Positions 1-54,351 of a stretch of 64,000 nt of DNA are shown piece after piece; within the stretch, counting starts at the first letter, position 1; every line of letters begins with the position of its first letter. Location of the stretch: contig OZ024742.1 in NCBI GenBank assembly GCA_964016885.1, forward strand, positions 209,560,001-209,624,000, in the 5' to 3' direction. A model generated the notes under the pieces. That model made no database searches, was not told where the DNA came from, and was given only the letters and a program-made list of their open reading frames with translations. The translations under genes were made by a program, and so were the position numbers. The DNA is from Eledone cirrhosa (taxonomy: Eukaryota).

Positions 1-1259
1 ATATAATTTAACTCATATAGGAAATACCCAAGACAATATATGATATTAAAAATAGAATTATTCTACGGACTCATAAAAACAGAGAGGTCATGTGAATTCA
101 GTATATATAAAAGTCGATTTCTTAATAGAACTTGGAACATGGCAAGAATATAATTTATACAAAAAAAAGAGAGATGGTCGCTATACTTGAGTGGCGAAAA
201 CAATATGCAAATATCTACAAACACACAAACATCCACACAGACACCCATACATGTGTAATTGTGTAGGAACTCACATACACAAACATACATAATTGTGTAA
301 GAACTCTGAACTTCACTGACCGCTTCTTATTTGTGCCGTTCGGCGCCGAGACATCTGGTCTCTTCGGTTTCGAACGTCCGTTTTCATCCACAAAATCCGA
401 ACCAATGCAGACCACCTGTGGAAAGAGATCCATTGTGTAGAGGGACTGATGCAGCAAGTGTCGCTTGCACTACTTTCGCTATTTTGTTCCCGAGGCGCAT
501 CTGTGATACACCACCTACGCTGGTGTGTAGCGTCAGCCGATCCCTCTCCCTTTTCTCTTATATTCGATATTTAACATTTTTCTCATGTTTTTGTGTGTGT
601 TTTTGAATAAGCAAACGTTCATGAATTGTTAATTGATGTCTCTAACTTGAAAAAGATATTTCGTGTATGATGTAAGAAACGAAAACTCTGTGGGGATAAA
701 CGGGATTGTTTCCCAAGAGTTCGAGCGGTTACAGTAGGTCAAATGCAAACAAGTGAGAGTCTGAAATAGTGCGTAAGAAGAAATATCATCATCTACCCAA
801 TACATATTTATTTTACATTTCTAACGCCGTTGATAAATAACGACTTTGTATCCCTGCAAAATAACGCAAACAAACAAATAAAATATGTCCGTGTGTTGTA
901 TGTTATATATATATATATATGTGTGTGTGTGTGTGTGTGTGTGTATGTATATATATATACACAGTTCAAGAGTAACCAATCTTAAAGAGAGAGATGGAGA
1001 TATGAGAGGAGAGATTGGTGAGTTAGTTAGAAGCCAAAGCGTAAAGGCATGTGCTCAATGTGCAATATGCAGTAGAAAGCAGCTAGGTGGCTGGGTTCAT
1101 GCAGAAGTTAGGTGCGCAGAGCTGGAAATATTCATTAGTTAAGCAAAACAAAACCACAAACTTCACAAGGAAGACATTATTAAAAGATTGTCAACATATT
1201 TTAGTTTGATGTAAGGAATGTAGAGAATAATAATATTAATATTAATAATAATAATGTCC

Positions 1260-1379
1260 GTTTACAATTGTTTCGCTACTCCATATAATATTTCTGGATC
1301 AGATGATTATATATCATAATTGATCTGGTTCAGTTGAAAATAATTAACATATATAAAAAACAGAGTGGCTCATCGGAAC
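1260..1379 (-). ncRNA. Type I hammerhead-like motif (CCGAUGA core, long stem II), left-arm copy
   Basis: Reverse complement of the motif at 2737-2856. Confidence 0.7.
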
Positions 1380-1946
1380 TCAAAGAAATATAAATTAAAA
1401 TAATGTTACATAATATAATGTTCCATATATTGGTTTTTACTATGGTGTCTTGGTTGCATCAGCTGTCAGCCATAATCAAGCAGTATTCATCTGTCGAGGC
1501 TGCATTGTGTGAGATCTGCCTATGGGTAACAAGATGGCTGCCAAAGGGCATATTTACCTTATTAATTAGAGGGTGGTTTCAGGGGAAGTAACTTCTCGAG
1601 AGATTAAAGATTGTGAGTATTTATAGTTAAGTGCTAGTTTTTAAATTTTTTAATTGAGAGACAATGTAGGGGAGGTAACTTATAATTATCGAGTTGTTCA
1701 TAGCAATTTAACTTATTAGCTACAAGTAGAAATGGGGCTACATGACTAAGTTGGGTCAAAAATTCTATTGGCGAATGAATTAGCCCTTCGATGTTGACAG
1801 CTAATGATTACCTCCGTTCTTTCGTTAATCGGTAGAAATCGTGATAGAGTTATGTAATATGCTTCCGTAACACAGAGATCACAAGATTTTCTTCGTCCAT
1901 TGAACGGTTGGGCCCTAGCCACGATATCCCATTTTAGTGAGTGTTG

Positions 1947-2330
1947 TACGTCCCTAATGCATGCCCATTAAATGGACACTGCCTGACACCCAACATAGTC
2001 TATAGGTGCACGGTTGAGACTGCTTCGAAAACCAGCTCTTATATCGGGTCTACCTCTAACCCTTTTAAGGTGCGCTATAACGCGCACTCTTTTTCTTTCC
2101 GAGACCCTAGCAACAGATGTTCGACATCGCTAGCTAGGCTCATTAAAAACCTTAAATTAAACAACATTCAACACTCACTAAAATGGGATATCGTAGCTAG
2201 GGCCCAACCGTTCAATGGACGAAGAAAAACCTTGTGTTCTCTATGTTACGGAAGCATATTACATAACTCTATCACGACCTCTACCGATTAACGATAGAAC
2301 GGAGGTAACCATTAGCTGTCAACATCGAAG
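1947..2330 (+). pseudogene. Penelope-like GIY-YIG endonuclease C-terminal fragment
   Basis: CPLNGHCLTPNIVYRC...YIGSTSNPFKVRYNAH...KWDIV...CSLC, homologous to the endonucleases at 17657-18151 and 19439-19620. Confidence 0.9.
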
Positions 2331-2736
2331 GGCTCATTCCTTCGCCTATAGAGTTTTTGACCCAACTTAGTCATGTAGCCCCATTTCTACTTGTAGCTAA
2401 TAAGTTAAATTGCTATGAACAACTCGATAATTATAAGTTACCTCCCCTACATTGTCTCTCAATTAAAAAATTTAAAAACTAGCACTTAACTATAAATACT
2501 CACAACCTCTAATCTCTCGAGAAGTTACTTCCCCTGAAACCACCCTCTAATTAGTAAGGTAAATATGCCCTTTGGCAGCCATCTTGTTACCCATAGGCAG
2601 ATCTCACACAATGCAGCCTCGACAGATGAATACTGCTTGATTATGGCTGACAGCTGATGCAACCAAGACACCATAGTAAAAACCAATATATGGAACATTA
2701 TATTATGTAACATTATTTTAATTTATATTTCTTTGA

Positions 2737-2856
2737 GTTCCGATGAGCCACTCTGTTTTTTATATATGTTAATTATTTTCAACTGAACCAGATCAATTAT
2801 GATATATAGTCATCTGATCCAGAAATATTATATGGAGTAGCGAAACAATTGTAAAC
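2737..2856 (+). ncRNA. Type I hammerhead-like motif (CCGAUGA core, long stem II)
   Basis: gtt-CCGATGA-gccactct...ggagtagc-GAAAC-AATT-GTA-aac. Stem I is gtt/aac, stem II closes with 7/8 pairs, and stem III has a palindromic loop. Confidence 0.7.
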
Positions 2857-3002
2857 GGACATTATTATTATTAATATTATTATTATTATTCTCTACATTC
2901 CTTACATCAAACTAAAATATGTTGACAATCTTTTAATAATGTCTTCCTTGTGAAGTTTGTGGTCTTGTTTTGCTTAACTAATGAATATATATATATATAT
3001 AT

Positions 3003-52306: not shown

Positions 52307-53285
52307 AATTATGTATGGTTAACTGTATGTCTAGTCAATATCTACAAGCTATCAGAAATACTAGGTGAATTTTCTGTGGCTGTGAATCGCGGATAAAAAG
52401 CTATCATTTATTTATCTATTATTTCTTCATAGGTATATTTTAAACTTATAGCCTCGTCTAAATGATTTTTTGTATAGTTGGTTATGCTGATTGGGAGAAG
52501 AAATACTGTATATATTTTATCTAATGATTCTATGGACTTACTTTCTTATATATTGCTCTGATTGTTTATTATTTAATTAATTAATTCGTTATTGAGCCAC
52601 ACCGTGAATGGTTGCCAAAAACATATATATATATATATATATATATATATATATATATATATATATATATATGGCTCTGTCTAGTCTATGTGTATGTAAA
52701 CTTCTAAATTGTATATACTCCCGTAAGGTTGAGTAAAACTTTAGGCAGTATTCGGCTGCGCTTTCTAGCAACCAGCCAACTAACCGACAGGCACCAATCA
52801 CAAGCTTTCTGACTTGACCACTAACCACGTGACAATTCTTAGCCATTTTGAATTCGTTTCTGGCGGGGATTATTTAAGAAAAATCTTTGTCCAATTGAGT
52901 TTGTCTCCTGATGATTTCGAAATTCGTTGATTTATCCAAGATCGGATATTTCCAAAAAGCGAATGAAATCTTCGGGGGTAGAGACATATTTGATGATTTT
53001 GGTATTTTTATGTACACTTTTTCTTCAAACTTTGATTTTGTACCAAATTATGTATGGTTAACTGTATGTCTAGTCAATTTCTATAGGCTATCAGAAATAC
53101 TATGTAAATTTTTTGTGGCTGTGAATCGCGGATAAAAAGCTATCATTATTTATCTATTATTTCTTCATAGGTATATTTTAAACTTATAGCCTCATTTAAA
53201 TTATTTTTTTATGGTTGATTATGCTGATTGGGAGAAGAAATATTGTATATATTTTATCTAATGATTCTATGGACTTACTTTCTTT
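52307..53285. repeat. ~240-bp direct repeats (52307-52547 and 53046-53285)
   Basis: aattatgtatggttaactgtatgtctagtcaat...ctaatgattctatggacttactttctt occurs twice at about 90% identity. Confidence 0.9.
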
Positions 53286-53445
53286 TATATATATATATAT
53301 ATATATATGTAGATAAATCTACCAAGAGTTTACGGTAGTGTCCAATCCGTATGAAGAACTCAATGTAATCCGGATATCATGGAAAGAAGAGATGCAATGA
53401 AAAATCACTTTCGGTGAAAGATAAACGGAATACAGAGTCAAGATG

Positions 53446-53857
53446 AAATATTAAAAAAATAATGAATAAAACAATGAAACAGTTCCTTATATTAAACAAA
53501 AAAAGTTCATTATTTAACGATCGTTTCTGGGATATATATGTGTTAGAATTGGCATGTATATTTAACAGATCTATGTACAAAATTATACAAAATTATACAA
53601 ACTATCAAAATTAAATATACATACCAACTCATATATATGCCGTCTTCAGAAATATTTCTGAAGACGGCATATATATGAGTTGGTATGTATATTTAATTTT
53701 GATAGTTTGTATAATTTTGTATAATTTTGTACATAGATCTGTTAAATATACATGCCAATTCTAACACATATATATCCCAGAAACGATCGTTAAATAATGA
53801 ACTTTTTTGGATATAAGGAACTGTTTCATTGTTTTATTCATTATTTTTTAAATATTT
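53446..53857. repeat. Spacerless palindrome (centre 53653|53654), ~205-bp arms
   Basis: ...gccgtcttcagaaat|atttctgaagacggc..., perfect for ~155 bp each side then one small indel. Confidence 0.97.
53654..53795 (+). ncRNA. Hammerhead-like motif (CUGAAGA core, ~115-nt stem II); mirror copy on - at 53512-53653
   Basis: attt-CTGAAGA-cggcatatatatg...catatatatccca-GAAAC-GATC-GTT-aaat. Confidence 0.62.
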
Positions 53858-53891
53858 TTTTTTATATTTTATATATATATATATATATACG

Positions 53892-54079
53892 ATATTAACA
53901 AATGGAAACTATATTTATAAAACCATATTTATTTTATTATACATATTTCAAGGACACCACGTTAAATTATGGTGTGCTTTCATCAGACAAAATACAATAT
54001 AGATCAGTTTTATAAATAAATAAATATTGACATACCCTTAAAAAATACAACCATTACTGTTGGAAGCTCCCGGATAGTG
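53892..54079 (-). repeat. Second copy of the 46103-46288 repeat; hammerhead-like motif at 53937-53990
   Basis: About 90% identical to 46103-46288, bounded by TA tracts. Confidence 0.8.
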
Positions 54080-54225
54080 TATATATATATATATATATAT
54101 ATATATATATATATATATATATATATATATATATATATAGTAATAATAATAAATTTGAAGACTAAAATCCAAAGAGGGCTCGATAAGGATAAATATATAT
54201 CAAATATATTAGAACCGTAGAGCAA

Positions 54226-54351
54226 ATATTTATTAAAATAACATATTAAAGTTTAAGCAAAGAATCGCTGCTTTCACCCTTAACGGGATCCCGTTAAGGG
54301 TGAAAGCAGCGATTCTTTGCTTAAACTTTAATCTGTTACTTTAATAAATAT
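54226..54351. repeat. Spacerless palindrome (centre 54288|54289), 63-bp arms
   Basis: ...ctttcacccttaacggga|tcccgttaagggtgaaag..., 2 mismatches. The right arm equals 28543-28608. Confidence 0.96.

Follow-up and report, generated by a model that had tools for sequence, protein, structure and literature searches.

The window analysed here, 64,000 nucleotides of the Eledone cirrhosa genome (assembly GCA_964016885.1, contig OZ024742.1, positions 209,560,001 to 209,624,000 of the forward strand), contains a series of inverted repeats that a preliminary description had ascribed to Penelope-like elements (PLEs) and their pseudo-long terminal repeats (pLTRs). The repeats were searched by self-BLAST, and all seven were recovered at the sizes claimed (arm/spacer, bp): 1128-2988 (820/222, family A), 4059-4288 (61/100, family B), 14697-16204 (730/33, family C), 19279-19343 (31/3), 29216-29264 (24/1), 53446-53857 (205/0, family F) and 54226-54351 (63/0, family G). 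Five of them are 5'-junction inversions of five different PLE families, in agreement with the earlier view that separate sequence families are involved. In each of these families the 3' end comes in two distinct forms, one short (S) and one extended by a tail (L), and the two arms of a unit nearly always end one at S and the other at L. The features of the window are the following (C3 denotes the hammerhead core residue).

948-1127, minus strand: family A tail of about 180 nt, on the left arm only, which runs into the start of the open reading frame (ORF) in the tandem copy L122.
1128-1946, minus strand: family A left arm (the tailed L arm), hammerhead-like motif with C3 at 1376.
1947-2988, plus strand: family A right arm, comprising the 222-nt spacer, the end of the GIY-YIG ORF, the pLTR and a short S end leading into (TA)n.
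Within 1947-2988, plus strand: hammerhead-like motif of the family A right arm, C3 at 2740, predicted cut after 2853.
3054-4226, minus strand: 5'-truncated family B PLE with tailed L end (S site at 3117) and a hammerhead near 3311, its core mutated here.
4218-4288, plus strand: inverted copy (61-70 nt) of a stretch from within the family B coding sequence, abutting (TA)n; it has neither an S end nor a hammerhead and belongs to the short snap-back class.
14697-15425, minus strand: family C short (S) arm, hammerhead-like motif with C3 at 14843.
15431-16250, plus strand: family C tailed (L) arm, with spacer, ORF end and hammerhead-like motif (C3 at 16058).
16205-16250, plus strand: family C tail of about 46 nt, which in L139 continues into the ORF.
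19172-21943, minus strand: element D, a near-complete but broken PLE ORF with RWK, DKT and CxCX5C motifs and no CCHH.
19279-19343: 31/3 repeat, formed by a 30-nt inverted duplication within the part of element D that encodes the endonuclease; it is no terminal foldback.
27460-28605, plus strand: family G unit, a tail-only L arm (27460-27557, minus strand) joined to a long S arm with a hammerhead-like motif (C3 at 28537).
29216-29264, plus strand: 24/1 repeat, a short fold-back at the 5' truncation of the 3' end of an old short interspersed element (SINE).
53306-53654, minus strand: family F tailed (L) arm, tail at 53306-53445, hammerhead-like motif with C3 at 53649.
53653-53858, plus strand: family F short (S) arm, hammerhead-like motif with C3 at 53658; its fold is placed 2 nt to the inside of the family 5'-end pile-up.
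54137-54290, minus strand: family G tailed (L) arm, tail at 54137-54225.
54287-54351, plus strand: family G short (S) arm, folded within the hammerhead core at a self-complementary word of 4 nt, 10 nt past the family +1.

The attribution of all seven repeats to Penelope sequence stood for the five junctions and, as PLE coding sequence, for the 31/3 repeat, where the ORF continues in frame on both sides of the duplication. It did not stand for the 24/1 repeat, which belongs to a SINE family, and neither of these two is a terminal PLE foldback. The arms of the short repeats match at 30/32 (31/3), 24/24 (24/1) and 61/63 (63/0) positions. (TA)n is present at both outer ends of all five PLE repeats and absent from the 31/3 repeat. 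Two features had been overlooked: one arm of each PLE repeat extends into a tail of 46-181 nt, and an eighth unit, of family G, lies at 27460-28605. Two more palindromes, at 48585-48665 and 55646-55791, gave no informative match among the fetched loci.

For a wider view of these junctions, the end of each family was used as a genome query, and the loci obtained (designated by L numbers) were analysed against natural copies as references. The tails measure 181 nt in A, 63 in B, 46 in C, 137 in F and 89 in G. Removal of 14 duplicate or double rows left 94 junctions, from which 8 with an unassignable end and one read-through tandem (L025/L122) were excluded; three loci were assigned manually (L/L for L003 and L220, S/L for L265). 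Among the resulting 85 assignable junctions, 80 are S/L, 5 are L/L and none is S/S (p=2e-18 against 50%), and without family B, which had been selected by its tail, S/L pairs make up 69/73 (p=2e-16). Among the 80 S/L pairs, 37 have the S arm as the one longer on the 5' side and 25 the L arm, while in 18 the two are equal. In 13 the partner consists of the tail alone, and the arms there barely overlap. The 820/222 repeat of the window has the layout of the 37 pairs: its left arm runs about 180 nt past anything in the right arm, and the 5'-longer arm is the one without a tail. Spacers of 1-2 kb are common. At the joints themselves (n=94), an overlap of 1-10 nt was seen in 47, a blunt join in 10, an insert in 36 and a 34-nt overlap in one; some of the inserts are snap-backs of one arm, 9-30 nt long. 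Tail-to-tail arrangements of family G occur in L120 (1424-1842, where both arms begin at the same base), L301, L304 and L315; these are not explained by the model proposed below.

The 5' ends of the copies also cluster at family-specific sites. Relative to C3 they pile up at -4/-5 in 8/29 loci of family G, at -58 to -78 in 13/29 loci of B, at -141 to -161 in 8/30 loci of A, and at -5 to -7 in 12/25 loci of F, a count biased by a query that started near the pile-up, although reads over the natural family-F copy L062 show the same base. Single-armed copies terminate at the pile-up site as well. In F and G this site coincides with the A of an initiator-like word and with the start of hammerhead stem I. 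Promoter and transcription start have been located within the pLTR of Drosophila Penelope (PMC2377424). The base between ATATAT and +1 was G in 67, A in 27 and C in 6 of the first 100 of 140 genome matches of family G, and G in 14/31 matches of family F, as compared with 2/16 at an internal control site (p=5e-5 for G and 0.049 for F; background 5-12%; T and direct joins excluded). This extra G is present in neither the element nor the (TA)n repeat. Zero spacers arise from this accumulation of 5' ends at a single site in each family, and a zero-spacer hairpin would represent two cDNAs that both reached the 5' end of the RNA. Family G has secondary 5' pile-ups at r1251-1255 and r1087, about 55 and 218 nt before the core, possibly other starts or a repeat-driven stop.

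The inverted repeats are not an assembly artefact. Zero-spacer palindromes are a known class of assembly and amplification artefacts, and the read evidence, taken from four runs, was obtained on the natural family-F copy L062 rather than on the seven junctions of the window. In Illumina raw reads from restriction site-associated DNA sequencing of two other samples, opposite-strand joints were found at 1497-1498 of L062, the family-F fold site, where 61/249 and 44/214 molecules ended, and a contig of a second organism enters the inverted arm of the family-F copy at the same base. The arms within the repeats are 2-10% apart in self-BLAST, end at family-specific sites and never include flanking sequence, all of which leaves chimeras a negligible probability.

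Inversions form routinely at PLE ends, as the preliminary description had proposed. A head-to-head partner arm was seen in 18/23 family A copies with a visible 5' end, and 14/25 family F loci are hairpins at the hammerhead. As a control, copies of the long interspersed element (LINE) at 35501-38640 of the window showed inversions in 2/27 truncated cases (p=3e-7, A versus LINE), both of them L1-type and non-overlapping (L273 and L289); 3/30 of the control loci reached the locus edge, and these copies are older (86-91% identity) and may have lost palindromes. Only 4/125 SINE copies are head to head. In a position-ordered sample of family G, 5/28 copies were two-armed, all of them S/L (p=0.05 versus the LINE control); the two-armed rate therefore depends on family and sampling.

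These units are ordinary insertions of endonuclease-bearing (EN+) PLEs in which the two nicked strands of the (TA)n target likely each start reverse transcription on sense RNA, the first from S and the second from L, with the cDNAs then likely joined head to head. A dimeric reverse transcriptase (RT)-endonuclease would direct each target end to its own start site, probably on a single RNA, and each cDNA would stop independently or at the cap. The tail is continuous with the ORF start in tandem copies of A (L122), B (L262) and C (L139), and the pLTR with its tail thus also serves as a 5' leader; no such tail-to-ORF tandem copy was found for families F or G. Where priming takes place in this leader copy of the pLTR, both cDNAs would run off the capped 5' end of the RNA, yielding zero-spacer hairpins and solo hammerhead inserts of 75-350 nt. 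The cDNA ends would be joined by microhomology or by templated fill-in, brief snap-backs included, and the hammerhead would travel along uncut and be unnecessary for the fold. An anole PLE was shown in vitro to nick and extend both target strands, to use two internal RT starts that bound the tail, and to copy an uncleaved RNA template, and its protein is predicted to be a dimer (PMC11167929).

A stronger form of this proposal, which we consider about as probable as its negation, is that the two-ended reaction is obligatory: a dimer would nick both (TA)n strands, with an S/L assignment of the two ends on capped sense RNA and a head-to-head fusion of cDNAs. Priming in the leader would then make thousands of mini-inserts with promoter and hammerhead, as well as perfect hairpins that mark the transcription start and are potential retrozyme seeds, and the scheme would replace antisense self-priming across the whole class.

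Several observations weigh against two-ended priming or are neutral to it. The initiator consensus at the F and G pile-up site is presumed, and the reading of the extra G as RT copying of the RNA 5' cap is likewise our assumption; neither T nor direct joins entered the extra-G test, and untemplated G and T occur at R2 junctions as well (PMC13000458). The locus samples consist of best-scoring, young copies. Five of the 85 units are L/L and break the pairing rule, and the median spacer of family G lies below the permuted value (p=0.015 in one out of eight tests). In 50/60 rows (duplicates kept) the unit has (TA)n on either side, where target-site duplications are unreadable. Inserts of 9-70 nt at L031, L056 and L253 and in the 61/100 repeat are snap-backs, and the 24/1 repeat is also a real short snap-back. 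Minor variants are common to both arms of a unit more often than in random pairs in B (42% versus 12%) and A (11% versus 5%), which is consistent with one RNA copied twice and equally with snap-back; sharing is not raised in G (13% versus 12%) or F (14% versus 24%). In the anole system no difference in start site was observed between the top strand and the bottom strand, and paired use of the two sites was not shown in the portion of that report considered here (PMC11167929).

The preliminary description had attributed the hairpins to snap-back of a truncated cDNA. A related scheme, in which cDNA or antisense RNA folds back, primes itself and makes a full hairpin whose arms are afterwards cleaved by the endonuclease, one at S and its partner at L, has published precedent: junction palindromes were so interpreted, with an antisense template, by Arkhipova in 2013 (PMC3846280), and the tail was attributed to endonuclease resolution of an intermediate (PMC8557442). 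The short snap-back inserts, the variants shared between arms in B and A and the low median spacer of family G also speak for it. A target-primed cDNA begun at S holds no tail, however, and its fold-back therefore cannot give a tailed partner, which is the layout of the 37/80 pairs with a 5'-longer S arm. The 13 tail-only partners and the common 1-2 kb spacers are also difficult for self-priming, and the extra G at the sense 5' end indicates a sense template. The continuum down to zero spacer, once taken as a sign of snap-back, loses that meaning given the 5' pile-up, since spacers of 20 nt or less were not in excess after permutation of partners (A, p=0.61; G, 0.16; B, 0.20; F, 1.0). Snap-back thus survives as the source of short inserts at some junctions, but for the long arms we regard self-priming as rather unlikely.

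Two other routes would produce head-to-head arms. A later copy of the same family could insert in inverted orientation at the 5' junction of the first; PLEs do nest in one another's (TA)n flanks, and the anole enzyme cuts its own pLTR (PMC11167929). Independent events would give at most 50% S/L pairs, compared with the 80/85 seen, and the junctions are free of (TA)n and scattered over many internal sites, which makes two separate insertions highly improbable. Alternatively, non-autonomous hairpins or retrozyme-like units could be copied whole from master hairpins. Short copies with a hammerhead number in the thousands (a single family-G pattern has 6162 exact matches), solo pLTRs that retain +1 and an internal promoter could be transcribed, and animal retrozymes have been argued to derive from pLTRs (10.64898/2026.07.22.740005). 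Against this, only the two zero-spacer examples among 14 family-F hairpins share a junction, and the tail lies on either side. As the family F junctions differ from locus to locus, the hairpins are made anew rather than copied whole, and the earlier suggestion that they spread as fixed non-autonomous units is not borne out. Furthermore, in 12 hairpins chosen by a variant in one arm, at a possibly hypermutable site, that variant was never found in the partner arm, and no tandem array of the window is a hammerhead unit. Copying from master hairpins is consequently a doubtful, very improbable source. Two candidate explanations were also rejected. Two apparently fixed arm haplotypes in family-F hairpins came down to a single-base difference at the edge of a homopolymer, which the search itself had selected. 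Inverted arms starting at the hammerhead cut were dismissed because breakpoints near 2864 reflect low-complexity masking and 5' ends are not clustered at the predicted cut.

The long repeats carry a hammerhead-like motif in each arm, as had been noted before: the 820, 730 and 205 repeats (families A, C and F) have it in both arms. In the 63/0 repeat the fold passes through the hammerhead core, the 61/100 repeat has no motif in its arms, and the family B motif is situated outside its repeat arms. A tolerant descriptor gave 10 matches in the window against a mean of 0.32 in 50 shuffles (maximum 2); it was tuned on these very motifs after two earlier strict scans had missed most of them. Core, stems I-II and NUH are present in A, C, F, G and B, with a U4C core in A and a U4A core in G, in keeping with the minimal type I hammerhead that characterizes the pLTRs of EN+ PLEs. 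A search of the window with Rfam at E<=1 found no hammerhead family and only miRNA-like matches on palindromes and microsatellites. In single-strand folding one of four motifs, the family F stem, was more stable than its shuffles (z -6.0), and the other three were not. Stem II is lengthened to 95-115 nt in L062:1515-1625 (F) and at 2747-2841 of the window (A), and in F it is this element that folds as one long helix. Minimal hammerheads are predicted to act as dimers, and opposite-strand pairs 100-700 bp apart have been noted (PMC4209133). The tolerant scan gave further hammerhead-like matches at 7249-7277, 52908-52980 and 49018. A short (TA)n-flanked family with a hammerhead-like CTGATGA core, at 53852-54099 and 46064-46308 (minus strand), is probably the solo pLTR of another PLE family.

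The PLE origin of most repeats, their hammerheads in pLTRs and the targeting of (TA)n all stood as first described. Element D is alignable over residues 1-478 and 532-751 of a 759-aa relative; one of its relatives is named as a GIY-YIG domain protein, and the nearest named RT relatives are from Argonauta hians. As in EN+ PLEs, a single ORF combines a PLE-type RT with a C-terminal GIY-YIG domain, and inverted 5'-truncated copies carry a tail at one end (80/85). ORFs are colinear with the ends of families A, F and G, and every family is tied to PLE coding sequence; a Pfam scan of six PLE ORF pieces returned no family. A truncated PLE, element E, lies at 16731-18830 (minus strand), and a matching 48-nt end piece at 3008-3055 is found again at many loci, in one case (the L008 flank) as a hairpin.

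The Hydra-clade marks RWK, DKT and a CxCX5C linker without CCHH all occur in A and D; of these, E, F and G have only the linker and the lack of CCHH, and families B and C lack the set. Judged by these motif marks and the definition in PMC8557442, families A, F and G and elements D and E carry the Hydra-clade linker. They resemble that clade, already reported in molluscs, in CxCX5C without CCHH, in hammerheads and in (TA)n, whereas family F differs in its long low-complexity 3' regions and family B has a Neptune-like CX4CxxC linker (PMC8557442). Family C is presumably Poseidon-like by its motifs, and neither B nor C is Hydra.

The architecture of these units is known, and the families and the mechanistic evidence are new. 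Inverted 5'-truncated copies, junction palindromes, one-sided tails, hammerheads and (TA)n targets have all been published for PLEs (PMC3846280, PMC8557442, PMC4209133, PMC2377424), and the canonical EN+ unit (PMC3846280; PMC8557442, Fig. 2; PMC2377424, Fig. 1C) shares with those described here the head-to-head arms, palindromic junctions, one-end tail, RT with C-terminal GIY-YIG domain, pLTR hammerhead and (TA)n. The tails here are longer (46-181 nt versus 30-40 published) and S/L pairing has been counted (80/85), and neither tail-only partners nor a cap-like G appeared in the portions of those accounts covered here. The Poseidon element PAc of Anolis (PMC11167929) likewise has two RT starts bounding a tail near the ORF start, AT-rich targets and an uncleaved hammerhead RNA template, but its tail is 30-40 nt and, in the portion covered, its two sites are not linked to the two arms of one insertion. 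Non-LTR retrozymes (10.64898/2026.07.22.740005) are also short, non-coding and pLTR-related with a type I hammerhead; they form head-to-tail tandem arrays, whereas the PLE units are single or head to head with locus-specific junctions. Among the tandem arrays of the window, no head-to-tail units each with a hammerhead were found. The variable spacers and unlike termini of the PLE units also set them apart from miniature inverted-repeat transposable elements (MITEs) and foldback DNA transposons. In L1-type twin priming, the RNA is likewise primed from the two target ends, but the annealing site of the second primer varies and the segments are non-overlapping. The PLEs share the two-ended priming and the head-to-head microhomology join, but have fixed starts and arms that usually overlap.

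The origin of inverted pLTRs and one-sided tails is still regarded as an open question (PMC8557442), for which the guesses in print are antisense self-priming (PMC3846280) and resolution by the endonuclease. No proposal of paired S/L two-ended priming or of a cap-derived G for PLEs was found in a literature search that had supplements and Arkhipova 2006 outside its scope. The near-strict S/L pairing in five unrelated families, together with tail-only partners and the cap-like G, favours two-sided priming on sense RNA. On this reading PLE transcription starts could be read from DNA alone, the filling of a 3.0-Gb genome with hairpin-forming, hammerhead-bearing inserts would be accounted for, and the inverted-pLTR question acquires a countable genomic signature that makes it directly testable, for example in the PLE in vitro system of PMC11167929.

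The remaining elements of the window include a non-coding inverted-repeat family at 22463-22887, with a fixed length of about 430 bp, a constant spacer, identical termini and 947 candidates, which forms a MITE-like contrast to the PLE units. A Tc1/mariner-like DNA transposon (26141-27462), which has terminal repeats of 34 bp and matches DDE_3, is inserted in (TA)n beside a family-G unit. Broken ORFs at 24486-25566 (minus strand) belong to another element, probably DNA-transposon-like; a Pfam scan of one piece gave no match. Broken LINEs with RVT_1 matches are located at 35501-38640 (plus strand), the copy used as control, and at 8442-10308 (minus strand). tRNA-type SINEs occur at 33778-34573 (four head-to-tail 200-bp copies at 33778), 12543-12732, 16404-16541, 32761-32972, 50800-51002 and 57142-57474. 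No hammerhead was found in them, and they are often inserted at ATT inside PLE pLTRs (L052, L058, L080, L110).

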